Positions 3,007 through 46,554 of a stretch of DNA of 64,000 bases are shown piece after piece. Source of the stretch: Giardia intestinalis (Eukaryota). Position numbers and translations under genes: made by a program. The notes beneath the pieces were generated by a model. It worked only from the letters and a program-made list of their open reading frames with translations, made no database searches and was not told the DNA's origin. Every line of letters starts with the position of its first letter. Position 1 is the first letter of the stretch. Location: assembly GCA_000002435.2 (NCBI GenBank), contig CM018793.1; one strand, given 5' to 3'.

Positions 3007-3354
3007 ATGCCGCGTAAAAATTTAATGTTGAAAGTATCACTGTATCCCAGATTTATTGCTCAGTATGGAGAAGACCGCCTGTCTACGCTCTTGGCTGAAG
3101 CTAAAGAAGAGCTCGATAAGCTGGATTTAAAGTGCGGGCTGCCCAGGGACTATAAACATACCCCCATTATTAACAGATTTAGCAAAGACGAAATAGTAGC
3201 AGAGTCGATGCTTAAATCTTATCTCTGCACCGTTTCGAGCCTTCCAGAAGATGCTATTGAAAGGCTCAAGCATCAGCTTCTCCCTGGTAACAGCGATGAC
3301 AACGATGTCAAAGACACTGAGCCTTTCAAGGAGCCTTATCTCAAGCAGAAGTAA
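3007..3354 (+). CDS. small hypothetical protein (115 aa)
   Basis: ATG ORF filling the gap between two minus-strand genes. It starts only 12 bp from the divergent start at 2994, so the true start may be a downstream Met. No homology recognised. Confidence 0.3.
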   Translation: MPRKNLMLKVSLYPRFIAQYGEDRLSTLLAEAKEELDKLDLKCGLPRDYKHTPIINRFSKDEIVAESMLKSYLCTVSSLPEDAIERLKHQLLPGNSDDNDVKDTEPFKEPYLKQK

Positions 3355-3370
3355 ATTTATTGGAAGGGAA

Positions 3371-10603: not shown

Positions 10604-10630
10604 CCATCAAATCTAGCGAAGTGAACACTT

Positions 10631-24988: not shown

Positions 24989-25213
24989 TTTTAGATCTTA
25001 GCTTATGTTAAAATTGCCAACACTGCTTGCTCAATCCATGAAGTATCTAATGCTGCTACTGAGGTATAAGACTGAGCTAGACCTTTCTCTGCTGACTTTT
25101 AAGTACCTCAATCAAAATGTTCCTATTTTTCCTTTCCAAGTATTCAATGGAGTTAGTGGCCTACTAAAGCAGTTATTATATAGTCTACCTCTGCTATCAT
25201 GATCGATAGTGTG

Positions 25214-26100
25214 CTAGGCTGCGGCAGAGCAGAAGGCCACGCCGGGCGCCGTGATGTCGTTGGCAGCATTCTGCTTTGCAGCGAGTGCCATTGTGGCGAC
25301 TGAGCCTCTGTTTGCAACCAGAGCAGCCAGGCTATCTGGAGCGATACATGCAGAAAAAAGCCTCACCAATGTCGTTGCGCCACGTAGTTCCGCCGCAGCC
25401 ACACCGTTAATCCTGTCGGTTACGGCCTGCACAGCAGAGAGTCGGCGCCGGTCAACTTGCGCGCCCGCCTGCATGTGAGAAGCACCTGGAAAGTGTCGCT
25501 CGCTGTAAGAAGCCTGGGGAAGGCCGCCGGGCCAGCGGGGGCAGCCACGGATTGACCGACGAAGCGGCTCGATGGGCTGCGAACGCGCATGCGTCAGCCC
25601 TCAGATTCTCCAGCAGCGGAAGGCAAGCGCCGAAAGGCTCTCCGCAGCCCTTGCCAAAGCCCAGCAGCATGCACAGCAGCGCTGTACCACACGCATAAAC
25701 GCTCAGAAACGGAGCTGCGTCAGTGCCCAGGGGAGCGGTCAAGACGTCCCGCACAGTGTCTACGCCCCCGGTGACACAGAGCTCCGCAAGGGCTGCTCCG
25801 AATGCGGTGGCGTCGAGTAAATGCGCGCACACAAGGCACAGCAGCAGCCTCGTTGTAGGCCAGTTGAGGACGCACTCGCTGCTCCACCCCGAGCTGTAGG
25901 TCTGACAGCAGGACGATCCGCTCCAGCCTCTCGGGCCCCTCCCCTGCTGTGCGCGTTGCAAGGCTCGCTGCGAAGGCACACGAGGCAGGGCCGCGCCGTG
26001 CATCCTCGAGCAGGCCGTCACTCAGCGCCAGCAGCTCCGCGTCCTGCACGACGCCGCCGGTGGCGTGGTAGTTCGCCATCAGGGAGCGCAACGAAGACGC
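25214..26100 (-). other. GC-rich (~68% GC) segment with three staggered minus-strand ORFs (147, 189, 86 aa) in different frames; possible decayed gene
   Basis: ORFs 25720..26163, 25452..26021 and 25214..25474 abut in successive frames. The reading switches frame near 25.75 kb (..VPCVRAFT / LLDATAFGAALAEL..). Open frames on both strands are expected at this GC content, so coding status is unproven. Confidence 0.2.
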
Positions 26101-26710
26101 AAGCATGAGCCCTCCTCGGCAGCCTCTCCGGTTGTCCGCCTGTCCGGGAATTATTCTTGCCAAATTGCATACGATTGCATTTTGAGATTTCGTCTCCTTC
26201 CCTGATGGACTGGAGCTTCAGCGTAGCGTCGTGTCTCCCAGGCCCGTCCACGCAGTGGCAGGCTACAGAGCCCGTTTGGCTGTCGCACAATGCACTGGCC
26301 TACCGGGCACGCTGGGCAGCATCTTAGCGCCTCCGACGACGAGGAGCCACTGGCCCTGGACTGCACCACTAGGTCGCCTATCGGGCACGCGCATGCTTCT
26401 TTCCGGGCCCCGTCCATCCAGCTGCCAGCCCCGGAGGCGGAGCAAGTCGGGAGACACCCCTCTGGCGAGAGCACGACAGGCAGCAAGGGCCAGCAGCCTT
26501 GCCATGGTCGCCCTCCTCGGCAGAGAGCCCGGCCCATCGCCCACTCACCGCGGTCTCCGAAGAGCCCTCGCCTCCTGGTCCACCGGTCCGCATGCGTATC
26601 TACTTGCCACGTTATAGTAGCGAAGCCCCTCACCTGTCTGGCTATTCTTCACTCGACGTGGAAGGTGTTTACATGCGTAATGCACCGGCCGTGGACCAAA
26701 TCTTAAGTTT

Positions 26711-28039
26711 ATGGCGCCCAGGGCGTCGTCGCCGGCGGAGGCTCCCTCCTTCCCGTCTGTGTCCTCTGCGCTGCAGATGCTTGTGCGGCCGCCTGTTCCA
26801 GCGTCAACCGGCGGGCATGACCCCGGTGGGGCGAGTCGTCTCCGAGAGGGACGCAGAGCCTGCGACCTGCGTTCTAGGCTGGGCCTTCTTCTGGGCCAGG
26901 CTGACGCGATGTCGGGGAGAAGCCGAGTGGGCCCGGAGACGCACTGCGCAAGGCTCCACCAGCTTCTAGCGCGGCTCGCAAGGCTGCAGGAAACAGACCG
27001 CTTGCTGGACGCCATTGAGTGTTCGAGTGCCTGCATGGCACAGATCAGCGACCCGGCCTGCCTCCGGTGCCTTCTTCGCGCACACTCCGCCCTAAGCATA
27101 TCCCCGCCTCCGGCTGGCCGTGGCGTCTCTCTAGAGAGGCAGCGGCAGTGCATAGCGTCGTCCATCTGTGAGCACTTTTCAGCAGGAATCCGAGGGGCGC
27201 TGGACAGGATCCTTGCTTCGCGCCTCCGCGCCTGCCACGAGACGCGCGCTCAAGCGCATCTTACGAAGCCAGAGGCCTCCGACCAGCTGGCTAGCCTCCT
27301 GTCCGGCCTCCGTGTGGAGGATGCTGCCCCCATTTCGGCGCACTGGAGCGACCAGCTCTTCTACACGGCTCTCTGCCGCGAAGCAGCCGTTGTCTGCGAG
27401 TCCCTGTCTTCACTCGCCCTTTCGGTGTCGGAACAGGTTAGGCGCCGTATGCACCTGGGCGACAGCGGACCCTTGACTGCGCTGCTCCACGCCGCGAGGT
27501 CTTTCGTTTCTGCGTGCGAGCACGCCTTTTCTGTGTCCTTCCCGACTGGGCTGATGAGTGAGAGCGGAGAGGCAGGCCTTTTGCTGGGCGGGATCGAAGA
27601 GACGGGGCCCTACTTTTCTGCGCGATTGAAGCTGGCCCGGGCAAGGGGGCGGCCTCGTGTAATCGGGCGGCTGTTCGGTCGGTCCGCTGCGTCCCCCATC
27701 GAGGCATATGTAGAGCGTATTCGTCAAAACTTCAGCGGCCCTGCAGCATGGGCTCCCCCCTACCCAGAGCCGGGCCAGAGCCTTATGTCTGACAGCTCTG
27801 CTGCGAGGCGGTGGCACACTACCGGCGCAGGCCAGCTCTTCGTCGACTTCCTTGTTTTGTTTCTGGGGTCAATCTTTGATGCATTTACTCTCGGGGATCA
27901 GATTGCAACCTTCCCCTCTATAGGCCTGTATCTCAGCAACAATCCAGTGGCGGAGGAAGGCGGGCTATTCGCACGGGTCTTCGCTACATACTCAGGAATG
28001 GTTGCCAGTGAAGCAGGGAGTCTAAGGGCTATCGAGTAG
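26711..28039 (+). CDS. hypothetical protein (442 aa), GC-rich gene
   Basis: ATG preceded by an A/T-rich initiator (aaatcttaagtttATGG). The 3' third has normal Giardia-like composition. No domain recognised. The length could partly reflect GC-driven stop depletion. Confidence 0.4.
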   Translation: MAPRASSPAEAPSFPSVSSALQMLVRPPVPASTGGHDPGGASRLREGRRACDLRSRLGLLLGQADAMSGRSRVGPETHCARLHQLLARLARLQETDRLLDAIECSSACMAQISDPACLRCLLRAHSALSISPPPAGRGVSLERQRQCIASSICEHFSAGIRGALDRILASRLRACHETRAQAHLTKPEASDQLASLLSGLRVEDAAPISAHWSDQLFYTALCREAAVVCESLSSLALSVSEQVRRRMHLGDSGPLTALLHAARSFVSACEHAFSVSFPTGLMSESGEAGLLLGGIEETGPYFSARLKLARARGRPRVIGRLFGRSAASPIEAYVERIRQNFSGPAAWAPPYPEPGQSLMSDSSAARRWHTTGAGQLFVDFLVLFLGSIFDAFTLGDQIATFPSIGLYLSNNPVAEEGGLFARVFATYSGMVASEAGSLRAIE

Positions 28040-28229
28040 AGCCATTACTCTGTCCCGACGAGCCGATCCCGCCTGCCACTCGTCGCCCGTGCAGCACTGT
28101 CCCTCCGGGCACACGACAAGGCGCCTCGTGTGCGACCAGGCCAGCGGGCTCCCCCCTGGGGCAGCCCTCGGAGTGGGAGTCTCAGAGAGGAGGCCGCCGG
28201 GGCACCCCCACCCGCTGCGCGCAATCCGG

Positions 28230-30227
28230 TCCACACCACAGCCTCTCTACTGATACCCCTGTTCGTGGTGAGCGCGCTTGCAGTAACCTGCCAGGCCGAT
28301 AAGTGCGAGACGGTCGGTAACACAGAGATCTGCACCCAGTGCAGGGCCGGGGCGTCCCGGTCGACGGCTTCTGCTGGCCCCCCGGCTTCCCCCAGGCCGC
28401 GGCAGCCGGGTGCACCGAGGAAGACGGGGTACCCTCGACAAGACGGCAGCCACCTGCGGGAAGTGCGGCGACGGGTACCTCCTCTTCATGGGCGGATGCT
28501 ACAAGACAGAGAGTCAGCCCGGCAGTGACATATGCACAGCAGCCAGTAACGGAGTATGCACTGAGTGTAATACAAAGAACGGCCTGTTCAAGAACCCTGC
28601 TACAGCACCAGAGAAAGGAAGGGAGTGCATACTCTGTCATGATGCCACGGGAGCAGATGGATATATGGGAGTCGAGGGCTGCGCTACATGTACAGCACCA
28701 ACTAATAATAAGGGGGCAGCCACGTGCACAGAGTGTCAAGATGGGTACTACAACGATGGTGGCGCATGTAAGAAGTGCGTTGATGGATGCATAGACTGCA
28801 CCGGTGCAAATCAATGCACAACATGTGAGGACGGGAAATACCTGAAGAATAATCAATGTGTAGATGCTGGTCAATGTGATCAAGGCACCTATGCAGACCC
28901 GACAACAGGCCAATGCAAGCCATGTGGAATAACTGACTGTGCCACCTGTGAGTACAATGCAACTATTAGTCAACCACAGTGTAAGACCTGCAGTACTAGT
29001 AGTAACAAGATGGTGAAGACAGCGGCAGACGGGACGACCACTTGTGTCGATGATGGTGGATGTACAAATGGCAATACGCACTTTGTTGAAGGTACTAACC
29101 AAAAGCTTTGTGTCCCATGTGGTGATACTACAAATGGTGGGGTTCTAGGTTGTAGTACTTGCTCCTCTAAAACTACATGTACAAAGTGCCTCGACGGATA
29201 CTACGATAGTGGTAGTGGTACGGTTACATGCACCGCTTGTCCAGGTGCTAACTGTGCCACCTGTGTTAAAGATACAAAAGACCAATGCACGACCTGTAAG
29301 CCTGGGTTCTTCTTGAAGGATAGCTCCTCTGGTGAGTGCATCTCATGTAGTGACAAAAACAATGGGGGCCACGAAGGGTGCAGTGCATGCTCTAGCAACG
29401 GTGCTTTCAAGTGCACTGACTGTAAGCCTAACTACAAAAAAGAGGGAACTTCAGACAACTATACATGTGTGAAGACTTGTGAGGACGAGACGGCTTGTGG
29501 TGGTACTTCTGGGGCCTGTGATGCAATAGTAATTGACGAGAATGGCAACACAAAGCATTATTGTTCATTCTGTGGGGAGAGTGGTAAGTTCCCTATAGAT
29601 GGTCTCTGTGCTAGTGACAAGGCTAATAATAATGGATGTGCCAATGGTGTCTGTACATCATGTACTGCTGCTAACTACTTCCTCTATATGGGTGGTTGTT
29701 ATAAGGTTAATACAGTACCAGGTAGTCATATGTGCAAGACAGCTAACAACGGTGTCTGTACAGCTGTTAGTGAGAACAATAAGTACTTCATAGTCCCAGG
29801 GGCATCCAATCAGAATCAGTCTGTACTAGCATGTGGTAACCCCCTAGGCACACTAGTAGATACTAAGGCATACGTGGGGGTCGAGGGCTGCTCTCAGTGT
29901 ACAGCCCCGACAGCTCTAACAACAGCTGGCATGACCGCTGCTGTGTGTACCTCCTGTGACAGTGATAGGAAGCCCAACAAGGATGGTACTGGGTGTGTGC
30001 TGTGCTCTGACACCAACTGCAAGAGCTGTGTGATGGACGGTGTGTGTGAGGAGTGCAACAGTGGCTTCAGCCTAGACAGCAGTGGGGCCTCCTGTGTGTC
30101 CTCTGGCGCCAACAGGAGCGGGCTCTCCACGGGGGCCATCGCGGGGATCTCCGTCGCCGTGGTCGTCGTCGTGGGGGGCCTCGTGGGCTTCTTGTGTTGG
30201 TGGTTTGTGTGTAGAGGGAAGGCGTAG
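28230..30227 (+). pseudogene. VSP family, array unit 1: full-length VSP body ending ..WWFVCRGKA, but the 5' end is degraded (no ATG before the signal-peptide-like segment, two frame shifts)
   Basis: A signal-peptide-like hydrophobic segment TASLLIPLFVVSALAVTCQADKCET.. lies in frame 2 (~28235-28320) with no ATG in front. The nearest upstream ATG (28130) would add a 37-aa GC-rich leader. Reading continues in frame 1 (GVPVDGFCWPPGFPQAAAAGCTEEDGV, from ~28345) and then in frame 0 from ~28430. Frame 0 holds the 605-codon body ORF 28410..30227 with CxxC repeats, GGCY, TM helix and CRGKA. Confidence 0.6.
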
Positions 30228-30237
30228 GTACTTAGGT

Positions 30238-30244
30238 AGTGAAT
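30238..30244 (+). promoter_or_regulatory. Giardia-type poly(A) signal AGTGAAT (AGTRAAY) ~11 nt after the VSP stop codon; recurs in every unit
   Basis: Sequence gcgTAGgtacttaggtAGTGAATgc. The same motif sits at +1835 steps (32073, 33908, 35743, 37578, 39413). AGTAAAT after the peroxiredoxin stop and AGTAAAC after the HCMP stop (44303) fit the same consensus. Confidence 0.55.
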
Positions 30245-30295
30245 GCTATGAGTGATGATAATGGGTGATAGTGGGTGATAGTATGATAGTGGAGT

Positions 30296-32062
30296 GTGAT
30301 ATGCACAACAGCCAGTAACGGAGTATGCACTGCTTGTAATACAGCTAACGGCCTGTTCAAGAACCCAGCTACAGCACCGAAGTCTGGTAGTGAGTGCATC
30401 CTGTGCTGGGATACCAAGGGAGCAGATGGATATACGGGGGTGGCTAACTGCGCCACATGTACGGCACCAGCTAGTAGTCCAGGACCTGCCACGTGTACTG
30501 AGTGCAAGGCTGGGTACGTTACGAAGGACAGTGCATGTGAGAAGTGCCAAGGGAACTGTGCCACCTGTGAGACTGAGGCGACCCACTGTACCTCTTGTAA
30601 GGGAAATACGTTCCTGAAGACTGATACTAACACTTGCGTAGAGGCTGGTCAATGCACTGGAAATAAGTACCCCGACCCAAGCACCGGCAAGTGCACAGCT
30701 TGTAACGCTCAAGAAGTGGGGATAGATGGATGCGACACATGTGAGTATGATACGACGCTGCAGAAGCCGAAGTGCCTGACCTGTACTGGTAAGATAGTCA
30801 AGGAAGAGGCCGACGGGACGACCACCTGCATTGCTGAGGGGGCTTGTACCCAAAACGGGAACGATGGTCCGAACTTTCTAACTGAACCGAACAAAAAGTG
30901 CATTCTCTGCAATAACACTGCAGATTCAACCCCTGGCAATACAGGTGTTCTTGGTTGTAGCACATGCTCTAAAGCTAATTCTGGTACAAATCCTCAGTGC
31001 AAGACATGCCTCGACGGATACTACAATAGCGCAAATAGTGGTAGTGGTACCGCTACATGCACAGTCTGTGGCGAGAATTGCGCCACCTGCACTCAAGCTG
31101 GCAATAATCAGTGTACTAAATGCAAGCCTGGATTCTTCATGAAAGGCAGTGGTCCTACTGGTGAGTGCCTTCCTTGTGATAATGCACAGGAGGGCATCGA
31201 TGGGTGTGCTGAGTGCACTGGTCCTGCAGGGTCCCTCAAGTGTACTAAGTGCAAGCCTAACAGGAAGCCCGTTGGAACCTCAGACAACTATACATGCACA
31301 GAGAAGACCTGCGAGGATACAACGGCTTGTGGGGGTACCTCTGGTGCCTGTGATGCCATGATAATAGATGATAAGGGCAATGCAAAGCACTACTGTTCCT
31401 ACTGTGGGGATAGTACTAAGTTCCCCATTGATGGACTATGTGTCAGTACTGGTAGCAATGCAAATGGTAATACTTGTACCAGTCATACATGTACATCATG
31501 TGCTGCTAACTACTTCCTCTATATGAACGGCTGTTATAGTGTATCAGCTCAACCTGGCAACTACATGTGCAAGAAAGCAGATAATAATGGGATATGCACA
31601 GAGGCGGCCAACAATAAGTACTTCATAGTCCCAGGGGCATCCAATCAGAATCAGTCTGTACTAGCATGTGGTAACCCCCTAGGCACACTAGTAGATACTA
31701 AGGCATACGTGGGGGTCGAGGGCTGCTCTCAGTGTACAGCCCCGACAGCTCTAACAACAGCTGGCATGACCGCTGCTGTGTGTACCTCCTGTGACAGTGA
31801 TAGGAAGCCCAACAAGGATGGTACTGGGTGTGTGCTGTGCTCTGACACCAACTGCAAGAGCTGTGTGATGGACGGTGTGTGTGAGGAGTGCAACAGTGGC
31901 TTCAGCCTAGACAGCAGTGGGGCCTCCTGTGTGTCCTCTGGCGCCAACAGGAGCGGGCTCTCCACGGGGGCCATCGCGGGGATCTCCGTCGCCGTGGTCG
32001 TCGTCGTGGGGGGCCTCGTGGGCTTCTTGTGTTGGTGGTTTGTGTGTAGAGGGAAGGCGTAG
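30296..32062 (+). CDS. VSP-family cassette, array unit 2 (588 codons; ectodomain+TM+CRGKA; lacks start codon context and signal peptide)
   Basis: The ORF begins MICTTASNGVCTACNT, about 100 codons into a VSP, directly after the 68-bp spacer. Many CxxC pairs, YFLYMNGCY. Ends GISVAVVVVVGGLVGFLCWWFVCRGKA, then TAG and AGTGAAT. Unique variants: CEDTT, NNTAD. Confidence 0.8.
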   Translation: MICTTASNGVCTACNTANGLFKNPATAPKSGSECILCWDTKGADGYTGVANCATCTAPASSPGPATCTECKAGYVTKDSACEKCQGNCATCETEATHCTSCKGNTFLKTDTNTCVEAGQCTGNKYPDPSTGKCTACNAQEVGIDGCDTCEYDTTLQKPKCLTCTGKIVKEEADGTTTCIAEGACTQNGNDGPNFLTEPNKKCILCNNTADSTPGNTGVLGCSTCSKANSGTNPQCKTCLDGYYNSANSGSGTATCTVCGENCATCTQAGNNQCTKCKPGFFMKGSGPTGECLPCDNAQEGIDGCAECTGPAGSLKCTKCKPNRKPVGTSDNYTCTEKTCEDTTACGGTSGACDAMIIDDKGNAKHYCSYCGDSTKFPIDGLCVSTGSNANGNTCTSHTCTSCAANYFLYMNGCYSVSAQPGNYMCKKADNNGICTEAANNKYFIVPGASNQNQSVLACGNPLGTLVDTKAYVGVEGCSQCTAPTALTTAGMTAAVCTSCDSDRKPNKDGTGCVLCSDTNCKSCVMDGVCEECNSGFSLDSSGASCVSSGANRSGLSTGAIAGISVAVVVVVGGLVGFLCWWFVCRGKA

Positions 32063-32130
32063 GTACTTAGGTAGTGAATGCTATGAGTGATGATAATGGG
32101 TGATAGTGGGTGATAGTATGATAGTGGAGT

Positions 32131-33897
32131 GTGATATGCACAACAGCCAGTAACGGAGTATGCACTGCTTGTAATACAGCTAACGGCCTGTTCAAGAACC
32201 CAGCTACAGCACCGAAGTCTGGTAGTGAGTGCATCCTGTGCTGGGATACCAAGGGAGCAGATGGATATACGGGGGTGGCTAACTGCGCCACATGTACGGC
32301 ACCAGCTAGTAGTCCAGGACCTGCCACGTGTACTGAGTGCAAGGCTGGGTACGTTACGAAGGACAGTGCATGTGAGAAGTGCCAAGGGAACTGTGCCACC
32401 TGTGAGACTGAGGCGACCCACTGTACCTCTTGTAAGGGAAATACGTTCCTGAAGACTGATACTAACACTTGCGTAGAGGCTGGTCAATGCACTGGAAATA
32501 AGTACCCCGACCCAAGCACCGGCAAGTGCACAGCTTGTAACGCTCAAGAAGTGGGGATAGATGGATGCGACACATGTGAGTATGATACGACGCTGCAGAA
32601 GCCGAAGTGCCTGACCTGTACTGGTAAGATAGTCAAGGAAGAGGCCGACGGGACGACCACCTGCATTGCTGAGGGGGCTTGTACCCAAAACGGGAACGAT
32701 GGTCCGAACTTTCTAACTGAACCGAACAAAAAGTGCATTCTCTGCAGTAATAATGTAGATTCAACCCCTGGCAATACAGGTGTTCTTGGTTGTAGCACAT
32801 GCTCTAAAGCTAATTCTGGTACAAATCCTCAGTGCAAGACATGCCTCGACGGATACTACAATAGCGCAAATAGTGGTAGTGGTACCGCTACATGCACAGT
32901 CTGTGGCGAGAATTGCGCCACCTGCACTCAAGCTGGCAATAATCAGTGTACTAAATGCAAGCCTGGATTCTTCATGAAAGGCAGTGGTCCTACTGGTGAG
33001 TGCCTTCCTTGTGATAATGCACAGGAGGGCATCGATGGGTGTGCTGAGTGCACTGGTCCTGCAGGGTCCCTCAAGTGTACTAAGTGCAAGCCTAACAGGA
33101 AGCCCGTTGGAACCTCAGACAACTATACATGCACAGAGAAGACCTGCGAGGATGAGACTGCGTGTGGGGGTACCTCTGGTGCCTGTGATGCCATGATAAT
33201 AGATGATAAGGGCAATGCAAAGCACTACTGTTCCTACTGTGGGGATAGTACTAAGTTCCCCATTGATGGACTATGTGTCAGTACTGGTAGCAATGCAAAT
33301 GGTAATACTTGTACCAGTCATACATGTACATCATGTGCTGCTAACTACTTCCTCTATATGAACGGCTGTTATAGTGTATCAGCTCAACCTGGCAACTACA
33401 TGTGCAAGAAAGCAGATAATAATGGGATATGCACAGAGGCGGCCAACAATAAGTACTTCATAGTCCCAGGGGCATCCAATCAGAATCAGTCTGTACTAGC
33501 ATGTGGTAACCCCCTAGGCACACTAGTAGATACTAAGGCATACGTGGGGGTCGAGGGCTGCTCTCAGTGTACAGCCCCGACAGCTCTAACAACAGCTGGC
33601 ATGACCGCTGCTGTGTGTACCTCCTGTGACAGTGATAGGAAGCCCAACAAGGATGGTACTGGGTGTGTGCTGTGCTCTGACACCAACTGCAAGAGCTGTG
33701 TGATGGACGGTGTGTGTGAGGAGTGCAACAGTGGCTTCAGCCTAGACAGCAGTGGGGCCTCCTGTGTGTCCTCTGGCGCCAACAGGAGCGGGCTCTCCAC
33801 GGGGGCCATCGCGGGGATCTCCGTCGCCGTGGTCGTCGTCGTGGGGGGCCTCGTGGGCTTCTTGTGTTGGTGGTTTGTGTGTAGAGGGAAGGCGTAG
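32131..33897 (+). CDS. VSP-family cassette, array unit 3 (signal-peptide-less)
   Basis: Over 99% identical to unit 2. Carries the SNNVD patch and CEDET. Same TM+CRGKA end. Confidence 0.8.
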   Translation: MICTTASNGVCTACNTANGLFKNPATAPKSGSECILCWDTKGADGYTGVANCATCTAPASSPGPATCTECKAGYVTKDSACEKCQGNCATCETEATHCTSCKGNTFLKTDTNTCVEAGQCTGNKYPDPSTGKCTACNAQEVGIDGCDTCEYDTTLQKPKCLTCTGKIVKEEADGTTTCIAEGACTQNGNDGPNFLTEPNKKCILCSNNVDSTPGNTGVLGCSTCSKANSGTNPQCKTCLDGYYNSANSGSGTATCTVCGENCATCTQAGNNQCTKCKPGFFMKGSGPTGECLPCDNAQEGIDGCAECTGPAGSLKCTKCKPNRKPVGTSDNYTCTEKTCEDETACGGTSGACDAMIIDDKGNAKHYCSYCGDSTKFPIDGLCVSTGSNANGNTCTSHTCTSCAANYFLYMNGCYSVSAQPGNYMCKKADNNGICTEAANNKYFIVPGASNQNQSVLACGNPLGTLVDTKAYVGVEGCSQCTAPTALTTAGMTAAVCTSCDSDRKPNKDGTGCVLCSDTNCKSCVMDGVCEECNSGFSLDSSGASCVSSGANRSGLSTGAIAGISVAVVVVVGGLVGFLCWWFVCRGKA

Positions 33898-33965
33898 GTA
33901 CTTAGGTAGTGAATGCTATGAGTGATGATAATGGGTGATAGTGGGTGATAGTATGATAGTGGAGT

Positions 33966-35732
33966 GTGATATGCACAACAGCCAGTAACGGAGTATGCAC
34001 TGCTTGTAATACAGCTAACGGCCTGTTCAAGAACCCAGCTACAGCACCGAAGTCTGGTAGTGAGTGCATCCTGTGCTGGGATACCAAGGGAGCAGATGGA
34101 TATACGGGGGTGGCTAACTGCGCCACATGTACGGCACCAGCTAGTAGTCCAGGACCTGCCACGTGTACTGAGTGCAAGGCTGGGTACGTTACGAAGGACA
34201 GTGCATGTGAGAAGTGCCAAGGGAACTGTGCCACCTGTGAGACTGAGGCGACCCACTGTACCTCTTGTAAGGGAAATACGTTCCTGAAGACTGATACTAA
34301 CACTTGCGTAGAGGCTGGTCAATGCACTGGAAATAAGTACCCCGACCCAAGCACCGGCAAGTGCACAGCTTGTAACGCTCAAGAAGTGGGGATAGATGGA
34401 TGCGACACATGTGAGTATGATACGACGCTGCAGAAGCCGAAGTGCCTGACCTGTACTGGTAAGATAGTCAAGGAAGAGGCCGACGGGACGACCACCTGCA
34501 TTGCTGAGGGGGCTTGTACCCAAAACGGGAACGATGGTCCGAACTTTCTAACTGAACCGAACAAAAAGTGCATTCTCTGCAATAACACTGCAGATTCAAC
34601 CCCTGGCAATACAGGTGTTCTTGGTTGTAGCACATGCTCTAAAGCTAATTCTGGTACAAATCCTCAGTGCAAGACATGCCTCGACGGATACTACAATAGC
34701 GCAAATAGTGGTAGTGGTACCGCTACATGCACAGTCTGTGGCGAGAATTGCGCCACCTGCACTCAAGCTGGCAATAATCAGTGTACTAAATGCAAGCCTG
34801 GATTCTTCATGAAAGGCAGTGGTCCTACTGGTGAGTGCCTTCCTTGTGATAATGCACAGGAGGGCATCGATGGATGTGCTGAGTGCACTGGTCCTGCAGG
34901 ATCCCTCAAGTGTACAAAGTGCAAGCCTAACAGGAAGCCCGTTGGAACCTCAGACAACTATACATGCACAGAGAAGACCTGCGAGGATGAGACTGCGTGT
35001 GGGGGTACCTCTGGTGCCTGTGATGCCATGATAATAGATGATAAGGGCAATGCAAAGCACTACTGTTCCTACTGTGGGGATAGTACTAAGTTCCCCATTG
35101 ATGGACTATGTGTCAGTACTGGTAGCAATGCAAATGGTAATACTTGTACCAGTCATACATGTACATCATGTGCTGCTAACTACTTCCTCTATATGAACGG
35201 CTGTTATAGTGTATCAGCTCAACCTGGCAACTACATGTGCAAGAAAGCAGATAATAATGGGATATGCACAGAGGCGGCCAACAATAAGTACTTCATAGTC
35301 CCAGGGGCATCCAATCAGAATCAGTCTGTACTAGCATGTGGTAACCCCCTAGGCACACTAGTAGATACTAAGGCATACGTGGGGGTCGAGGGCTGCTCTC
35401 AGTGTACAGCCCCGACAGCTCTAACAACAGCTGGCATGACCGCTGCTGTGTGTACCTCCTGTGACAGTGATAGGAAGCCCAACAAGGATGGTACTGGGTG
35501 TGTGCTGTGCTCTGACACCAACTGCAAGAGCTGTGTGATGGACGGTGTGTGTGAGGAGTGCAACAGTGGCTTCAGCCTAGACAGCAGTGGGGCCTCCTGT
35601 GTGTCCTCTGGCGCCAACAGGAGCGGGCTCTCCACGGGGGCCATCGCGGGGATCTCCGTCGCCGTGGTCGTCGTCGTGGGGGGCCTCGTGGGCTTCTTGT
35701 GTTGGTGGTTTGTGTGTAGAGGGAAGGCGTAG
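33966..35732 (+). CDS. VSP-family cassette, array unit 4 (signal-peptide-less)
   Basis: Near-identical unit: NNTAD patch, CEDET, and the second synonymous-SNP haplotype around unit position ~920. Confidence 0.8.
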   Translation: MICTTASNGVCTACNTANGLFKNPATAPKSGSECILCWDTKGADGYTGVANCATCTAPASSPGPATCTECKAGYVTKDSACEKCQGNCATCETEATHCTSCKGNTFLKTDTNTCVEAGQCTGNKYPDPSTGKCTACNAQEVGIDGCDTCEYDTTLQKPKCLTCTGKIVKEEADGTTTCIAEGACTQNGNDGPNFLTEPNKKCILCNNTADSTPGNTGVLGCSTCSKANSGTNPQCKTCLDGYYNSANSGSGTATCTVCGENCATCTQAGNNQCTKCKPGFFMKGSGPTGECLPCDNAQEGIDGCAECTGPAGSLKCTKCKPNRKPVGTSDNYTCTEKTCEDETACGGTSGACDAMIIDDKGNAKHYCSYCGDSTKFPIDGLCVSTGSNANGNTCTSHTCTSCAANYFLYMNGCYSVSAQPGNYMCKKADNNGICTEAANNKYFIVPGASNQNQSVLACGNPLGTLVDTKAYVGVEGCSQCTAPTALTTAGMTAAVCTSCDSDRKPNKDGTGCVLCSDTNCKSCVMDGVCEECNSGFSLDSSGASCVSSGANRSGLSTGAIAGISVAVVVVVGGLVGFLCWWFVCRGKA

Positions 35733-35800
35733 GTACTTAGGTAGTGAATGCTATGAGTGATGATAATGGGTGATAGTGGGTGATAGTATGATAGTGGAGT

Positions 35801-37567
35801 GTGATATGCACAACAGCCAGTAACGGAGTATGCACTGCTTGTAATACAGCTAACGGCCTGTTCAAGAACCCAGCTACAGCACCGAAGTCTGGTAGTGAGT
35901 GCATCCTGTGCTGGGATACCAAGGGAGCAGATGGATATACGGGGGTGGCTAACTGCGCCACATGTACGGCACCAGCTAGTAGTCCAGGACCTGCCACGTG
36001 TACTGAGTGCAAGGCTGGGTACGTTACGAAGGACAGTGCATGTGAGAAGTGCCAAGGGAACTGTGCCACCTGTGAGACTGAGGCGACCCACTGTACCTCT
36101 TGTAAGGGAAATACGTTCCTGAAGACTGATACTAACACTTGCGTAGAGGCTGGTCAATGCACTGGAAATAAGTACCCCGACCCAAGCACCGGCAAGTGCA
36201 CAGCTTGTAACGCTCAAGAAGTGGGGATAGATGGATGCGACACATGTGAGTATGATACGACGCTGCAGAAGCCGAAGTGCCTGACCTGTACTGGTAAGAT
36301 AGTCAAGGAAGAGGCCGACGGGACGACCACCTGCATTGCTGAGGGGGCTTGTACCCAAAACGGGAACGATGGTCCGAACTTTCTAACTGAACCGAACAAA
36401 AAGTGCATTCTCTGCAATAACACTGCAGATTCAACCCCTGGCAATACAGGTGTTCTTGGTTGTAGCACATGCTCTAAAGCTAATTCTGGTACAAATCCTC
36501 AGTGCAAGACATGCCTCGACGGATACTACAATAGCGCAAATAGTGGTAGTGGTACCGCTACATGCACAGTCTGTGGCGAGAATTGCGCCACCTGCACTCA
36601 AGCTGGCAATAATCAGTGTACTAAATGCAAGCCTGGATTCTTCATGAAAGGCAGTGGTCCTACTGGTGAGTGCCTTCCTTGTGATAATGCACAGGAGGGC
36701 ATCGATGGATGTGCTGAGTGCACTGGTCCTGCAGGATCCCTCAAGTGTACAAAGTGCAAGCCTAACAGGAAGCCCGTTGGAACCTCAGACAACTATACAT
36801 GCACAGAGAAGACCTGCGAGGATGAGACTGCGTGTGGGGGTACCTCTGGTGCCTGTGATGCCATGATAATAGATGATAAGGGCAATGCAAAGCACTACTG
36901 TTCCTACTGTGGGGATAGTACTAAGTTCCCCATTGATGGACTATGTGTCAGTACTGGTAGCAATGCAAATGGTAATACTTGTACCAGTCATACATGTACA
37001 TCATGTGCTGCTAACTACTTCCTCTATATGAACGGCTGTTATAGTGTATCAGCTCAACCTGGCAACTACATGTGCAAGAAAGCAGATAATAATGGGATAT
37101 GCACAGAGGCGGCCAACAATAAGTACTTCATAGTCCCAGGGGCATCCAATCAGAATCAGTCTGTACTAGCATGTGGTAACCCCCTAGGCACACTAGTAGA
37201 TACTAAGGCATACGTGGGGGTCGAGGGCTGCTCTCAGTGTACAGCCCCGACAGCTCTAACAACAGCTGGCATGACCGCTGCTGTGTGTACCTCCTGTGAC
37301 AGTGATAGGAAGCCCAACAAGGATGGTACTGGGTGTGTGCTGTGCTCTGACACCAACTGCAAGAGCTGTGTGATGGACGGTGTGTGTGAGGAGTGCAACA
37401 GTGGCTTCAGCCTAGACAGCAGTGGGGCCTCCTGTGTGTCCTCTGGCGCCAACAGGAGCGGGCTCTCCACGGGGGCCATCGCGGGGATCTCCGTCGCCGT
37501 GGTCGTCGTCGTGGGGGGCCTCGTGGGCTTCTTGTGTTGGTGGTTTGTGTGTAGAGGGAAGGCGTAG
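35801..37567 (+). CDS. VSP-family cassette, array unit 5 (signal-peptide-less)
   Basis: Indistinguishable from unit 4 at the protein level. Confidence 0.8.
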   Translation: MICTTASNGVCTACNTANGLFKNPATAPKSGSECILCWDTKGADGYTGVANCATCTAPASSPGPATCTECKAGYVTKDSACEKCQGNCATCETEATHCTSCKGNTFLKTDTNTCVEAGQCTGNKYPDPSTGKCTACNAQEVGIDGCDTCEYDTTLQKPKCLTCTGKIVKEEADGTTTCIAEGACTQNGNDGPNFLTEPNKKCILCNNTADSTPGNTGVLGCSTCSKANSGTNPQCKTCLDGYYNSANSGSGTATCTVCGENCATCTQAGNNQCTKCKPGFFMKGSGPTGECLPCDNAQEGIDGCAECTGPAGSLKCTKCKPNRKPVGTSDNYTCTEKTCEDETACGGTSGACDAMIIDDKGNAKHYCSYCGDSTKFPIDGLCVSTGSNANGNTCTSHTCTSCAANYFLYMNGCYSVSAQPGNYMCKKADNNGICTEAANNKYFIVPGASNQNQSVLACGNPLGTLVDTKAYVGVEGCSQCTAPTALTTAGMTAAVCTSCDSDRKPNKDGTGCVLCSDTNCKSCVMDGVCEECNSGFSLDSSGASCVSSGANRSGLSTGAIAGISVAVVVVVGGLVGFLCWWFVCRGKA

Positions 37568-37635
37568 GTACTTAGGTAGTGAATGCTATGAGTGATGATA
37601 ATGGGTGATAGTGGGTGATAGTATGATAGTGGAGT

Positions 37636-39402
37636 GTGATATGCACAACAGCCAGTAACGGAGTATGCACTGCTTGTAATACAGCTAACGGCCTGTTCAA
37701 GAACCCAGCTACAGCACCGAAGTCTGGTAGTGAGTGCATCCTGTGCTGGGATACCAAGGGAGCAGATGGATATACGGGGGTGGCTAACTGCGCCACATGT
37801 ACGGCACCAGCTAGTAGTCCAGGACCTGCCACGTGTACTGAGTGCAAGGCTGGGTACGTTACGAAGGACAGTGCATGTGAGAAGTGCCAAGGGAACTGTG
37901 CCACCTGTGAGACTGAGGCGACCCACTGTACCTCTTGTAAGGGAAATACGTTCCTGAAGACTGATACTAACACTTGCGTAGAGGCTGGTCAATGCACTGG
38001 AAATAAGTACCCCGACCCAAGCACCGGCAAGTGCACAGCTTGTAACGCTCAAGAAGTGGGGATAGATGGATGCGACACATGTGAGTATGATACGACGCTG
38101 CAGAAGCCGAAGTGCCTGACCTGTACTGGTAAGATAGTCAAGGAAGAGGCCGACGGGACGACCACCTGCATTGCTGAGGGGGCTTGTACCCAAAACGGGA
38201 ACGATGGTCCGAACTTTCTAACTGAACCGAACAAAAAGTGCATTCTCTGCAGTAATAATGTAGATTCAACCCCTGGCAATACAGGTGTTCTTGGTTGTAG
38301 CACATGCTCTAAAGCTAATTCTGGTACAAATCCTCAGTGCAAGACATGCCTCGACGGATACTACAATAGCGCAAATAGTGGTAGTGGTACCGCTACATGC
38401 ACAGTCTGTGGCGAGAATTGCGCCACCTGCACTCAAGCTGGCAATAATCAGTGTACTAAATGCAAGCCTGGATTCTTCATGAAAGGCAGTGGTCCTACTG
38501 GTGAGTGCCTTCCTTGTGATAATGCACAGGAGGGCATCGATGGATGTGCTGAGTGCACTGGTCCTGCAGGATCCCTCAAGTGTACAAAGTGCAAGCCTAA
38601 CAGGAAGCCCGTTGGAACCTCAGACAACTATACATGCACAGAGAAGACCTGCGAGGATGAGACTGCGTGTGGGGGTACCTCTGGTGCCTGTGATGCCATG
38701 ATAATAGATGATAAGGGCAATGCAAAGCACTACTGTTCCTACTGTGGGGATAGTACTAAGTTCCCCATTGATGGACTATGTGTCAGTACTGGTAGCAATG
38801 CAAATGGTAATACTTGTACCAGTCATACATGTACATCATGTGCTGCTAACTACTTCCTCTATATGAACGGCTGTTATAGTGTATCAGCTCAACCTGGCAA
38901 CTACATGTGCAAGAAAGCAGATAATAATGGGATATGCACAGAGGCGGCCAACAATAAGTACTTCATAGTCCCAGGGGCATCCAATCAGAATCAGTCTGTA
39001 CTAGCATGTGGTAACCCCCTAGGCACACTAGTAGATACTAAGGCATACGTGGGGGTCGAGGGCTGCTCTCAGTGTACAGCCCCGACAGCTCTAACAACAG
39101 CTGGCATGACCGCTGCTGTGTGTACCTCCTGTGACAGTGATAGGAAGCCCAACAAGGATGGTACTGGGTGTGTGCTGTGCTCTGACACCAACTGCAAGAG
39201 CTGTGTGATGGACGGTGTGTGTGAGGAGTGCAACAGTGGCTTCAGCCTAGACAGCAGTGGGGCCTCCTGTGTGTCCTCTGGCGCCAACAGGAGCGGGCTC
39301 TCCACGGGGGCCATCGCGGGGATCTCCGTCGCCGTGGTCGTCGTCGTGGGGGGCCTCGTGGGCTTCTTGTGTTGGTGGTTTGTGTGTAGAGGGAAGGCGT
39401 AG
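37636..39402 (+). CDS. VSP-family cassette, array unit 6 (signal-peptide-less)
   Basis: Unit-4-type background but carrying the SNNVD patch seen in unit 3. Confidence 0.8.
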   Translation: MICTTASNGVCTACNTANGLFKNPATAPKSGSECILCWDTKGADGYTGVANCATCTAPASSPGPATCTECKAGYVTKDSACEKCQGNCATCETEATHCTSCKGNTFLKTDTNTCVEAGQCTGNKYPDPSTGKCTACNAQEVGIDGCDTCEYDTTLQKPKCLTCTGKIVKEEADGTTTCIAEGACTQNGNDGPNFLTEPNKKCILCSNNVDSTPGNTGVLGCSTCSKANSGTNPQCKTCLDGYYNSANSGSGTATCTVCGENCATCTQAGNNQCTKCKPGFFMKGSGPTGECLPCDNAQEGIDGCAECTGPAGSLKCTKCKPNRKPVGTSDNYTCTEKTCEDETACGGTSGACDAMIIDDKGNAKHYCSYCGDSTKFPIDGLCVSTGSNANGNTCTSHTCTSCAANYFLYMNGCYSVSAQPGNYMCKKADNNGICTEAANNKYFIVPGASNQNQSVLACGNPLGTLVDTKAYVGVEGCSQCTAPTALTTAGMTAAVCTSCDSDRKPNKDGTGCVLCSDTNCKSCVMDGVCEECNSGFSLDSSGASCVSSGANRSGLSTGAIAGISVAVVVVVGGLVGFLCWWFVCRGKA

Positions 39403-39470
39403 GTACTTAGGTAGTGAATGCTATGAGTGATGATAATGGGTGATAGTGGGTGATAGTATGATAGTGGAGT

Positions 39471-41186
39471 GTGATATGCACAACAGCCAGTAACGGAGTA
39501 TGCACTGCTTGTAATACAGCTAACGGCCTGTTCAAGAACCCAGCTACAGCACCGAAGTCTGGTAGTGAGTGCATCCTGTGCTGGGATACCAAGGGAGCAG
39601 ATGGATATACGGGGGTGGCTAACTGCGCCACATGTACGGCACCAGCTAGTAGTCCAGGACCTGCCACGTGTACTGAGTGCAAGGCTGGGTACGTTACGAA
39701 GGACAGTGCATGTGAGAAGTGCCAAGGGAACTGTGCCACCTGTGAGACTGAGGCGACCCACTGTACCTCTTGTAAGGGAAATACGTTCCTGAAGACTGAT
39801 ACTAACACTTGCGTAGAGGCTGGTCAATGCACTGGAAATAAGTACCCCGACCCAAGCACCGGCAAGTGCACAGCTTGTAACGCTCAAGAAGTGGGGATAG
39901 ATGGATGCGACACATGTGAGTATGATACGACGCTGCAGAAGCCGAAGTGCCTGACCTGTACTGGTAAGATAGTCAAGGAAGAGGCCGACGGGACGACCAC
40001 CTGCATTGCTGAGGGGGCTTGTACCCAAAACGGGAACGATGGTCCGAACTTTCTAACTGAACCGAACAAAAAGTGCATTCTCTGCAATAACACTGCAGAT
40101 TCAACCCCTGGCAATACAGGTGTTCTTGGTTGTAGCACATGCTCTAAAGCTAATTCTGGTACAAATCCTCAGTGCAAGACATGCCTCGACGGATACTACA
40201 ATAGCGCAAATAGTGGTAGTGGTACCGCTACATGCACAGTCTGTGGCGAGAATTGCGCCACCTGCACTCAAGCTGGCAATAATCAGTGTACTAAATGCAA
40301 GCCTGGATTCTTCATGAAAGGCAGTGGTCCTACTGGTGAGTGCCTTCCTTGTGATAATGCACAGGAGGGCATCGATGGATGTGCTGAGTGCACTGGTCCT
40401 GCAGGATCCCTCAAGTGTACAAAGTGCAAGCCTAACAGGAAGCCCGTTGGAACCTCAGACAACTATACATGCACAGAGAAGACCTGCGAGGATGAGACTG
40501 CGTGTGGGGGTACCTCTGGTGCCTGTGATGCCATGATAATAGATGATAAGGGCAATGCAAAGCACTACTGTTCCTACTGTGGGGATAGTACTAAGTTCCC
40601 CATTGATGGACTATGTGTCAGTACTGGTAGCAATGCAAATGGTAATACTTGTACCAGTCATACATGTACATCATGTGCTGCTAACTACTTCCTCTATATG
40701 AACGGCTGTTATAGTGTATCAGCTCAACCTGGCAACTACATGTGCAAGAAAGCAGATAATAATGGGATATGCACAGAGGCGGCCAACAATAAGTACTTCA
40801 TAGTCCCAGGGGCATCCAATCAGAATCAGTCTGTACTAGCATGTGGTAACCCCCTAGGCACACTAGTAGATACTAAGGCATACGTGGGGGTCGAGGGCTG
40901 CTCTCAGTGTACAGCCCCGACAGCTCTAACAACAGCTGGCATGACCGCTGCTGTGTGTACCTCTTGTGGTGAGAGTAAGAAGCCCAACAAGGATGGCACT
41001 GGGTGTGTGCTGTGCTCTGTGGGTGATTGCAAGAGCTGTGTGATGGATAATATATGTGGGGAGTGCAACAGTGGCTTCAGCATAGACAATGGTAAGTGCG
41101 TGTCCTCTGGCAGTAATAGGAGCGGGCTCTCCACGGGGGCCATCGCGGGGATCTCCGTGGCTGGTCTCGTTGGGCTTCTGTGTTAG
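39471..41186 (+). CDS. VSP-family cassette, array unit 7: divergent 3' end, truncated TM segment, no CRGKA tail
   Basis: Identical to unit 4 until ~40950. It then diverges (CTSCGESKKPNKDGTGCVLCSVGDCKSCVMDNICGECNSGFSIDNGKCVSSGSNRSGLSTGAIAGISVAGLVGLLC*). The array ends here and runs into GC-rich DNA. Confidence 0.7.
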   Translation: MICTTASNGVCTACNTANGLFKNPATAPKSGSECILCWDTKGADGYTGVANCATCTAPASSPGPATCTECKAGYVTKDSACEKCQGNCATCETEATHCTSCKGNTFLKTDTNTCVEAGQCTGNKYPDPSTGKCTACNAQEVGIDGCDTCEYDTTLQKPKCLTCTGKIVKEEADGTTTCIAEGACTQNGNDGPNFLTEPNKKCILCNNTADSTPGNTGVLGCSTCSKANSGTNPQCKTCLDGYYNSANSGSGTATCTVCGENCATCTQAGNNQCTKCKPGFFMKGSGPTGECLPCDNAQEGIDGCAECTGPAGSLKCTKCKPNRKPVGTSDNYTCTEKTCEDETACGGTSGACDAMIIDDKGNAKHYCSYCGDSTKFPIDGLCVSTGSNANGNTCTSHTCTSCAANYFLYMNGCYSVSAQPGNYMCKKADNNGICTEAANNKYFIVPGASNQNQSVLACGNPLGTLVDTKAYVGVEGCSQCTAPTALTTAGMTAAVCTSCGESKKPNKDGTGCVLCSVGDCKSCVMDNICGECNSGFSIDNGKCVSSGSNRSGLSTGAIAGISVAGLVGLLC

Positions 41187-41804
41187 TGATGACTACTGGC
41201 CCGGGGTGGGCATCCGCTGTCCATCCGCCCGGTGCTGCTACGTGCCCGTGGAGGTCTGGACGCCCGCTGCAACCAGGGTGGAGAGAGTCGGCGCTGCGGC
41301 ACCCCCGCTGGGTCTCGCCGTGAGTGAGGGCAGAAGCTCTCGGGGGCCCCGGGGGCAATGCCTGATGTGCAGAGCAGTGGACAGCTCAGCCGTGGATTTA
41401 AAATAGCGCGTCGCTCGATGGCGCTCCCCGGCCTGCCGAAGCAGCGGGTGCTCGACTGCGTAGCATAGGCGCCGAACCACGCCTGCAGCCGTGGGAGGCC
41501 GGCGCAGCATGGGCGGTCCCTGCACAGGGTGGCTCGGACCCGCCACCCGGCCGTTGCGTGCAGGCACCGCCCACTCGGTCCGCTCGGCTGGCCTCTGCAA
41601 AAGACCGGCACACGGAGTGGCAGGACCTGTGCACCCCCGAGGGACAGGGGCTCGACTCGCCCTCTGAGGATCGCTCCGTGCCGACTCCGGGCCCGCCGTT
41701 CGACCACGCGGAGGCCGGGCATCCGGGAGCCTCCACAGCAGAGGTAGTGTGGCGGATCCTTGCTGATTCGGACACATTAAAAACTTGTATCCTCAAGGAT
41801 TCAC

Positions 41805-44303: not shown

Positions 44304-44334
44304 CCCAGTAAACGGAGCCGTCAGAGCGGACGGC

Positions 44335-46352
44335 TTGCTCTGCAGCGACTTACAGGGGGCAGGCCAGGCAGCCGTGTCCAGGATGGGCGCGCCCGGCTGT
44401 CCCGGCAGAAGGAGGCGCCGGAAGTGCTCGGAGACGGTGTCCTCCGTGTGCTGCATGCAATCAGGAGGCAAGCACACTCTATTCTACGGCAGCTGCTACA
44501 CGAGCACACCAGCACGGGACGGAAGCTTAGGTAGCCCTCTGTGCTCCGACACAGTCGGGTCCGGTGGATACAGGGGCGCCTCTGGTGTCCAAGCCGCGTG
44601 TCCCCCGTACGTGGCAAAACGGCATCGCCCTGTGTGCTAGGTGCTGCCACACAACAGAGAACAGAAGCGTTTATCCAACCGACCATCATGCCAGCTAAGG
44701 GACCCCGTACTTGTGTCAACGGATACTCACATCCTGCCACAAGACACGCCGCCCTACAGGTGTGGATACTAGGGCCGGCACAGCTCGACCGGGCTTGCTA
44801 TAGGTGCAGAGCAGGCCAGTACGAACTGGAGCATGCGACCATCTGCACAGAGTGTGCGAACAACTCCTGCGCCTGGGAGCGGTGCATGCGCCCTTGCTAG
44901 GGAGAGCTCGTCCCTCGAAGAGATCGCTTTGAGCGCACAAAGGACCAACCAAGGGGCGTGCACAGCCTGCTCCAACTCTGTAAAGCCCTTCCTGCTCTAC
45001 GGCGGCTGCTCCGAGGACAGGCTCTACATCTGCTCAAGACCCTGCTCAGAAAGCGGGTCGAATGCTTGCGAACAGTGGAGCAGTGCTTCCGGGTGGATCT
45101 TCTCTAAGAATGCGGGAGCAATGGAGACCGATATCTGTGCGATGACGCTCCAAATGGGGGCATTTCTGGCTGTGCCACGTGTAGGTACAATAACGGTGTG
45201 ACGTGTACGCGGTGCTCGGCGAGGCACCTCGGGGTGGATGGGAAGTCCTGCAGTGAGAGCTGCAGTGGAGACACTCAAGGAGTGTGCACAAAGGTAGCAG
45301 AGGGGAGCGAGTCAACTGAAGTGTCGTGCCGGTGCGTCTGCAGGATGGGCCTCTACAACAGCTCCGGAACCTGCACACCATGTACGGACTCGTGCGCTGT
45401 CTGCAAGGATGGCAAGTCAACCGGCTGCCAGCAGTGCAGCCCCGGCAAAGTCCTGGAGCCGTCAGTCGTCGCAAACGGTAATGCAAAATGTGTAGATGAG
45501 TGCGCTGTTGGTGACGACTGTGCAGAGTGCGGCATCACCATCGACGGCAGCAGGTACTGCACGCGCTGCAAGGACTCGAATATGTACCCTCTCAACGGGG
45601 TGTGTATTCCGAACACACAAAAAGACGCGTACTGCACCAACAAGGCAAATGGTGCTTGTACTACATGCTCAGGAGCGGCCTTCCTGATGAACGGGGGCTG
45701 CTACACAACGGAGCACTATCCAGGAAGCACTATCTGTGACAAACAGGCAGGCGGGAAGTGTGAGAAGACCAAGAAGGAGTACGGGATATCGGACGATGGA
45801 AAGCTGCTGGAGTGCGACCCGACATGTCTGGGGTGCACCGCCCCTGGCCCCGGCCGCTGCACCAGGTGCCCCTCTGACAAGCTCCTGAAGAGGGCCTCAG
45901 GTGCCGCCACCGGGAGCTGCATTGACCCCAACGCCTGTGTAGACGGGTACTATGCAGACGGAGACGCGTGCCTGCCCTGCGCCACTCCGGGGTGCAAGAC
46001 CTGCGGGCATGCCTCCTTCTGCACAGAGTGCGCGGGGGAGCTCTTCGTGAGCCTGGACGGGCAGTCGTGCCTGGGGGAGTGCACCGGGGACAAGGTGGTG
46101 GGAGAGGTGCCCGGTGGCGTGCGGAGGTGCTGGTGCGAGCGGGGTTTCCTGCCGGCGCTGGACAGATCCGAGTGTGTGCTCCCAACCGAGTGTCCCCCTG
46201 ACATGCCATCGTGTGCTGCCTGCGATACGTCGGGTAGGTGCCTCTTGTGTGCCGCCTCGAATCATAACATCCAGACAGATCAGCGGACATGTGCAGAAGG
46301 GTGCGGTGCCAGGGCCTCATCGAACCAGGGGGTGTGTCACAAAAACTCTTAG
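44335..46352 (+). pseudogene. HCMP/VSP-like cysteine-rich pseudogene (frame-shifted, no signal peptide, no TM/tail)
   Basis: Cys-rich coding signal hops between frames. Frame 1 44335-44640 has GKHTLFYGSCYTS. Frame 0 44541-44900 has ICTECANNSCA. Frame 1 44833-45201 has ACTACSNSVKPFLLYGGCSED. Frame 0 from ~45108 has ECGSNGDRYLCDDAPNGGISGCATC and runs to 46352 (..NGGCYTTEHYPGSTICD..). The final 384-codon ORF ends without TM or tail. Confidence 0.55.
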
Positions 46353-46554
46353 CAGGTTCCTCGAGTGGCATGAATAGGAAGACAGGCTATTGTGAGGCCA
46401 CTCGGATCACATCACCAGATGTTTAGTTGCTCGATAACATTGATATTTTCTGCAGACATGCAAGCGAATCGTTAGTGGCTGCTAATAAATGTAGGACTTA
46501 GTGGTGGTAAAAGATCGTCAGTTGAATAGAATACGTCAATAGCATTGGTACATG

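Follow-up and report, generated by a model that had tools for sequence, protein, structure and literature searches.

A VSP array of Giardia intestinalis WB appears to be headed by a start-less pseudogene, whether or not its two frame shifts are real

The first unit of a seven-unit VSP array in the genome of Giardia intestinalis WB C6 lacks both a start codon and an initiator element, and judging from its sequence it would be a pseudogene even if the two frame shifts that interrupt it were repaired. The array lies in a stretch of 64,000 nucleotides (the window) on the largest chromosome (4.02-Mb) of the 2020 PacBio reference (GCA_000002435.2; PMC7000408), where its units run head-to-tail from 28241 to 41186, a span of ~12.9 kb. 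A preliminary description of this DNA had left two possibilities for unit 1: either this unit is a pseudogene as well, which would leave the array without a directly expressible member, or errors in base calling disguise the single live gene of the array. Because a repaired unit 1 would still be without an ATG or an initiator (Inr), the second possibility fails, and the non-expressibility of unit 1 is unchanged whether the shifts are real or errors. We think it likely that an old VSP pseudogene survives in unit 1 as a 5' shell and was dead before isolates WB and DH diverged, with the history that we propose below.

The lesion that matters most is at the start. No ATG occurs in any frame of the plus strand between 28040 and 28487, and in the leader's own frame there is none back to the stop at 28037-28039. 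The earlier observation that no ATG precedes the leader is thus correct; position 28130, which had been taken for the nearest in-frame ATG, turns out to be a GTG. The first in-frame ATG of the unit 1 body is at 28488 (MGGCYK...), and no signal peptide follows it. The leader begins ...TASLLIPLF in WB where intact relatives read MFQLIPLF, and the ATG followed by a signal peptide that characterizes a functional Giardia VSP is absent from unit 1. So is the initiator element of a functional VSP: PyAATGTT has no plus-strand match from 24000 to 47000, whereas the intact paralogue (L002) has TAATGTT in its start region, CCCTCTAATGTTCCAACTGATACCCC, which combines this Inr with MFQLIPLF. The corresponding regions are CACAGCCTCTCTACTGATACCCC in WB, CACAGCCATTCTACTGATACCCC in DH and CACAGCCTTTCTACTGATACCCC in a contig from another isolate (L003), and at the ATG/Inr site itself WB has GCCTCTCTA in place of the intact paralogue's CTAATGTTCCAA. 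The ATG and Inr have thus been replaced by unrelated GC-rich sequence. The stretch upstream of the leader (28040..28240, plus strand) is 74% GC and is open in the leader's frame without an ATG or an AT-rich initiator, and from ~28069 it is conserved both with the DH contig (L001) and with the other locus, L003. The same loss of ATG and Inr is therefore seen in the two assemblage-A strains compared here and in a third isolate, in the latter case at a different locus, between kinase and ankyrin genes. Given that WB, DH and L003 have this lesion in common, it cannot be a sequencing artefact of the WB assembly. Together with the lack of any plus-strand PyAATGTT from 24000 to 47000 and of any annotated protein in 28040-41186, the absence of ATG and Inr from the DH orthologue and L003 supports the pseudogene possibility, and no member of the array should be able to make a signal-peptide-bearing VSP directly.

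Downstream of the missing start, unit 1 is recognizably a VSP read in three frames of the plus strand. VSP homology begins near 28241, and the first segment of the 5' remnant (28241..28352, frame of 28001) carries the VSP-like leader TASLLIPLFVVSALAVTCQADKCETVGNTEICTQCRAG, with the signal-peptide-like ASLLIPLFVVSALAVTC and the first Cys motifs. The second segment (28351..28429, frame of 28000) reads GVPVDGFCWPPGFPQAAAAGCTEEDG, and the body and 3' end (28431..30227, frame of 28002) read TLDKTAATCGKCGDGYLLFMGGCYK / TLDKTAATCGKCGDGY... and stay open, TM domain and CRGKA included, up to the stop at 30227. With the N-terminus of the intact WB VSP P0013 as query, tblastn returned three linked matches in three frames (E = 1.6e-39), so that the succession of a leader in one frame and two further frames, as originally described, is confirmed and is not due to chance. 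The 624 residues from 28351 onward include 27 CXXC motifs and are 12% Cys, and unit 1 matches Pfam PF03302 with E = 4.5e-45. Its C-terminus, ...GGLVGFLCWWFVCRGKA* at 30227, is followed by the extended VSP polyadenylation signal ACTTAGGTAGTGAATGC (30230..30246, plus strand; motif from bioRxiv 10.1101/2022.03.07.483299). The TM domain, CRGKA tail and polyadenylation signal of a functional VSP are all present; the continuous ORF of a functional VSP is not, the frame being broken at 28349-52 and 28429/30. Repairing both shifts by inserting two bases yields ...CRAGGVPVDGFCWPPGFPQAAAAGCTEEDGATLDKTAATCGKCGDGY..., in which EEDGATLDK is a motif present in the intact WB paralogue P0013.

The two breaks differ in kind. 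The first, as had been proposed, falls within a G-run: at 28349..28352 (plus strand) WB has GGGG, in the context GCC-GGGG-CGTC, where GGGGG is present in DH, in both the orthologue and a paralogue, and in a relative assembled from Illumina reads. The second (28429..28430, plus strand) had been placed in a C-run, and here the proposal does not hold: the relatives all agree with WB in the length of the CCC at 28432-28434. What is missing is one base, the C of GGGG-C-T in the relatives (WB GACGGGG^TACCCTC, DH orthologue GACGGGGCTGCCCTC), and the shift adjoins the G-run 28426-28429 without being a homopolymer contraction itself. The un-shifted reading at both sites is that of the DH orthologue (L001), the DH paralogue (L002, protein P0007) and L003 (protein P0004).

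The comparison with DH separates what is old at this locus from what is particular to WB. The best N-terminal match to the repaired unit 1 is P0001 (ESU34700; 86% over 100 residues), encoded on a 3417-bp contig of isolate DH, assemblage A2 (L001, AHGT01000182.1), that represents the syntenic locus. Positions 1-1269 of this contig are 94.8% identical to window 27314-28580 in an alignment that has exactly two gaps, each of one base, at 28349-52 and 28429/30; positions 2905-3417 align with 41097-41611 at 93%. Between these flanks DH has a single 749-aa ORF, unshifted and continuous, that is still without an ATG before its hydrophobic leader, and hence the conclusion that base-call errors hide a live gene is not sustained. 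At their 3' ends the last WB unit and the DH ORF have the same lesion: 18 nt of the TM domain are deleted, the sequence then reads TAG TGA TGA, and the same GC-rich flank comes next (tail-less VSP 3' end, 41097..41190, plus strand). Since the start and 3' lesions are common to the two isolates, the start-less, tail-less VSP shell is likely to predate the split between WB (A1) and DH (A2). The number of VSP bodies within it is one in DH (~75% identical to the WB units) and seven in WB, with the proviso that the DH contig is short (3.4 kb) and may represent a collapsed array.

Two further observations come from these alignments. WB/DH divergence over 27314-28580 is 2.4% in the ORF named 114445, 7.5% in the leader and ~10% in the VSP 5' remnant, and in the upstream part (114445 plus leader) many of the differences are G/C in WB and A/T in DH. 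The L003 contig (ENA ERZ28528424, NODE_39; another isolate, assembled from Illumina reads with SPAdes) contains, at 9787-11974, the start-less 5' module with ~170 bp of its upstream sequence. There, at an unrelated locus, the module heads a fully open VSP ORF that ends in CRGKA and for which the gene caller resorted to a GTG start.

We consider the two one-base deletions to be probably real rather than PacBio errors, because there are about as many of them as neutral decay would produce. Over the 340 bp of the 5' remnant WB and DH differ by 2 indels and 32 substitutions, and over 515 bp of the right flank by 2 one-base indels and 33 substitutions. At the flank's ratio of indels to substitutions ~1 indel is expected in the 5' remnant, and the 2 that are seen are unremarkable. 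The alternative, that the shifts are leftover errors of the PacBio consensus and that the true WB sequence is a continuous ORF like that of DH (still a start-less pseudo-VSP), strikes us as rather unlikely. PacBio RS II reads were assembled with a Quiver consensus, homopolymer frameshifts were reported by the authors, and these were corrected only at sites with a minimum of 10 mapped Illumina reads, 50% or more of them in support of the change (PMC7000408). A GC-rich, paralogue-like segment could have escaped such correction, the region being 67-74% GC with long stretches identical to paralogues, which would hamper the mapping of 75-bp reads. All three relatives have the un-shifted reading, and the positions of the shifts are also suggestive: the first is a 5-to-4 contraction of a G-run and the second abuts GGGG, both at the run's 3' edge. 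However, the second would be a homopolymer contraction only if an additional C-to-G substitution is assumed, and it is unlikely that two errors no more than 80 bp apart both went uncorrected at ~290x PacBio coverage (derived from 3.6 Gb of reads and a 12.6-Mb genome; PMC7000408) and with 85 indels corrected genome-wide. The indel load is moreover equal to that of the verified right flank, and a nearby GC-rich stretch agrees perfectly with an independent assembly: a Logan contig (run SRR14213831) is 100% identical to window 41172-42077, a stretch of 906 bp in which there are 13 G/C runs of 4 or more.

Searches of other sequence collections yielded neither reads nor an independent WB contig for 28349-28430. 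Protein searches gave no match above 61% identity for the repaired unit and none above 62% for its actual long-ORF frame, and with the other five reading frames, joined into one query, the matches were limited to paralogues and to an antisense ORF that the old assembly has in a paralogue (P0241). The window ORFs 28488-30227, 28410-30227 and 28182-28640 (minus strand) had no exact match on record, and a DNA pattern allowing 4 or 5 G had 0 matches in the JGI metagenomes. Codon-position bias was considered as a sign of constraint on the 5' remnant and set aside, as the WB/DH differences are even across codon positions and such evenness is uninformative for a diversifying family.

A more radical alternative is that unit 1 is the live expression copy of the array, read from a non-AUG or distant upstream start or by programmed frame recovery. 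In its favour, unit 1 keeps its leader and cysteine motifs as well as the TM-CRGKA tail and extended poly(A) signal, and in DH the annotated start is an ATG 60 codons upstream of the leader that opens the continuous 749-aa ORF. Nevertheless, WB has ACG at the position of this ATG (28058-28060), L003 has an in-frame stop within the stretch that matches the 60-codon extension of DH, and an extension of 60 residues would bury the signal peptide. In WB, 450 nt pass without an ATG in any frame and the Inr is missing too, two breaks interrupt the ORF, and the reference annotation gives no protein there. To our knowledge, there is no non-AUG initiation in Giardia, and we regard expression of unit 1 by any of these routes as highly improbable. 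The more probable reading, that of an old pseudogene shell, has one awkward aspect: in DH and L003 the start-less module is followed by intact ORFs, which is somewhat unexpected and counts against genes that are long dead. Repeated gene conversion could explain it.

The remainder of the array consists of units 2-7 (30296..41186, plus strand), six 5'-truncated pseudo-VSPs with a period of 1835 bp. Each opens with ICTTASNGVCT after a 68-bp spacer with stops in all frames, and none has an in-frame ATG upstream of its ICTTASNG start. Given this truncation, unit 1 is the sole 5'-complete unit, and the initial picture of a 13-kb array with one such member was accurate. Compared in register, units 2-6 differ at 0-12 positions per 1835 bp. 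The 1835-bp repeat identity starts within the 3' end of unit 1, at ~29650-29800, such that its last ~430 nt are identical to the repeat units and the body before them is diverged and its own. The polyadenylation signal found after unit 1 is kept after units 1-6 and is absent after unit 7, which is without the end of the TM domain and CRGKA. In all seven units we therefore find what defines a linear pseudo-VSP array, namely VSP homology that lacks a proper start or signal peptide, arranged head-to-tail with short spacers. The longest period that Tandem Repeats Finder considers is 500, and for that reason the program missed the array.

Differences between the units (30296-41186) are concentrated in three tight patches, at relative positions 616-625, 908-950 and 1023-1031 of the 1835-bp unit. 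The patches are common to units in varying combinations (NNTADS versus SNNVDS, for example), with units 4 and 5 identical, a pattern that resembles a mosaic of short conversion tracts and not the outcome of independent point mutation. Long antisense ORFs of 306-319 aa run through every VSP unit (28182-29102 and 29894-30853, both minus strand, and equivalent positions elsewhere). In the old WB annotation an antisense ORF of this kind, from a paralogue, was listed as a 'hypothetical protein' (GL50803_20672, P0241) and is probably spurious.

The array is bordered by GC-rich islands (25200-28500 and 41100-46400) of 60-75% GC versus ~46-50% elsewhere, and of ten long ORFs of the window compared for exact identity, nine, those of the flanks among them, are WB clone C6 proteins of the KAE83047xx series. 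On the left is the GC-rich multi-copy hypothetical ORF GL50803_00114445 (KAE8304796; 26711..28039, plus strand), with its stop in the leader's frame, and on the right are the hypothetical GL50803_0060176 (KAE8304797; 41238-41777, minus strand) and the High cysteine membrane protein Group 3 (KAE8304798; 41805-44303, plus strand). Because KAE8304796 and KAE8304797 are consecutive accessions that bracket the array, no protein is annotated inside it (28040-41186), and the bracketing thus shows the lack of coding annotation that is typical of pseudo-VSPs. No VSP relics were found in the left flank upstream of 28241. The two flanks have no similarity to one another and are not mutual repeats, and an rDNA origin of these GC-rich sequences was likewise rejected, the sole Rfam match in the window being a tRNA-Val (GAC) at 59112-59186 (plus strand).

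Several features of the neighbourhood are recorded here for completeness. The GC-rich islands carry the multi-copy 'hypothetical' ORFs 114445, 60176 and 116574. The gene order d114445, d60176, HCMP group 3, 116575 occurs again on this chromosome at a distance of ~70 genes, suggestive of a segmental duplication, and more 114445 paralogues are found on the 2.76-Mb chromosome. A second cysteine-rich pseudogene occupies 44300-46352 (plus strand), with VSP/HCMP homology (PF03302, E = 5e-32 for 45198-46352), no ATG start, and homology that extends upstream in another frame; the annotated hypothetical 116574 (44833-45201) lies inside it. Farther away, the 544-aa ORF at 10631-12265 (minus strand) has an exact match in Logan assemblies only. 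The reference protein there, KAE8304786 (DTW domain), has 512 aa, which suggests a different choice of start in the annotation.

We suggest the following history for the locus. An ancestral VSP of the MFQLIPLF... subfamily would have been cut back at its 5' end as far as the fourth codon, so that ATG and PyAATGTT were gone and unrelated GC-rich DNA stood in place of the lost sequence. Its 3' end would likewise have been shortened, by the last part of the TM domain together with the CRGKA tail. Both lesions would precede the split of WB (A1) and DH (A2). In the WB lineage the interior may then have been replaced and amplified to seven head-to-tail units, with the conserved VSP 3' ends as the probable sites of unequal crossing-over or gene conversion. 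Finally, the start-less 5' module would have acquired its two one-base deletions, as expected of unconstrained DNA. Of these elements, the missing start and Inr, the 3' lesion common to WB and DH, the indels particular to the WB sequence and the expansion to seven units are seen directly in the comparison, while the biological origin of the indels and the mechanism of amplification are our interpretation.

In most respects the array is an ordinary instance of an already described class. Linear VSP arrays have ~60 bp spacers and downstream members without Inr, which are proposed to serve as cassettes in recombination or to be genes that have been discarded (Adam et al. 2010, PMC2996952); VSPs that lack a proper signal peptide are annotated as pseudo-VSPs (Xu et al. 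2020, PMC7000408). Like the published Giardia psiVSP/pVSP arrays (PMC2996952; PMC7000408; bioRxiv 10.1101/2022.03.07.483299), the one described here is head-to-tail with spacers close to 60 bp (68 bp), its downstream members have no start codon, signal peptide or Inr, and the extended poly(A) signal is kept. Long subtelomeric arrays of VSP pseudogenes without signal peptides are also described for Giardia muris, where they are proposed as reservoirs for gene conversion (Xu et al. 2020, PMC7641422). The G. muris arrays are telomeric and diverse, whereas the WB array is apparently chromosome-internal, with ordinary genes on both sides, and nearly homogeneous. Unlike about half of the published Giardia arrays, in which the first member has a normal Inr and start, this one has a first member that is dead. 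It also differs in the unusual uniformity of its units (0-12 differences per 1835 bp), a sign of very recent amplification, and in that strain DH appears to have only one unit at the locus.

Silent archives of cassettes for recombinational antigenic variation are familiar from the VSG pseudogene arrays of Trypanosoma brucei, from Borrelia vls and from Neisseria pilS. The WB array resembles them, in layout only, as a set of promoter-less, 5'-truncated tandem copies between conserved blocks that could guide conversion. For Giardia we know of neither an expression site nor a demonstrated conversion into an expressed VSP. Switching between VSPs is considered to be epigenetic or post-transcriptional (PMC2996952). 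The signs of conversion seen here are indirect ones, in the form of the identical 430-nt 3' end of unit 1 and the repeats, the clustered substitution patches, and the differing content of the locus in WB and DH. The array is probably inert, transcriptionally and translationally, as a source of VSP, and it may at most serve as a cassette reservoir for recombination with expressible VSPs.

For curation, unit 1 should stay annotated as a pseudo-VSP whatever the true homopolymer lengths, and beyond this the absence of a directly expressible member from a 13-kb array of the WB reference has little importance in itself. A bolder reading, of which we are quite doubtful, is that the start-less GC-rich 5' module (~28069-28500) is a conserved mobile recombination adaptor that feeds cassettes into expressible VSPs. 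The module is present at at least 2 different loci in three isolates, on a fully open VSP frame in two of them, and the array units begin ~30 nt downstream of its end, such that cassettes bounded by the module junction and the conserved 3' end could move by gene conversion. If true, this would give Giardia a recombinational form of antigen diversification, and the one unit of DH versus the seven of WB would represent turnover. More broadly, the comparison of WB and DH suggests a start-less, tail-less shell that is older than the A1/A2 split around an interior that was replaced and amplified recently, and an old shell with a recent interior is the pattern expected if pseudo-VSP arrays are, as has been published though not yet demonstrated, dynamic reservoirs.
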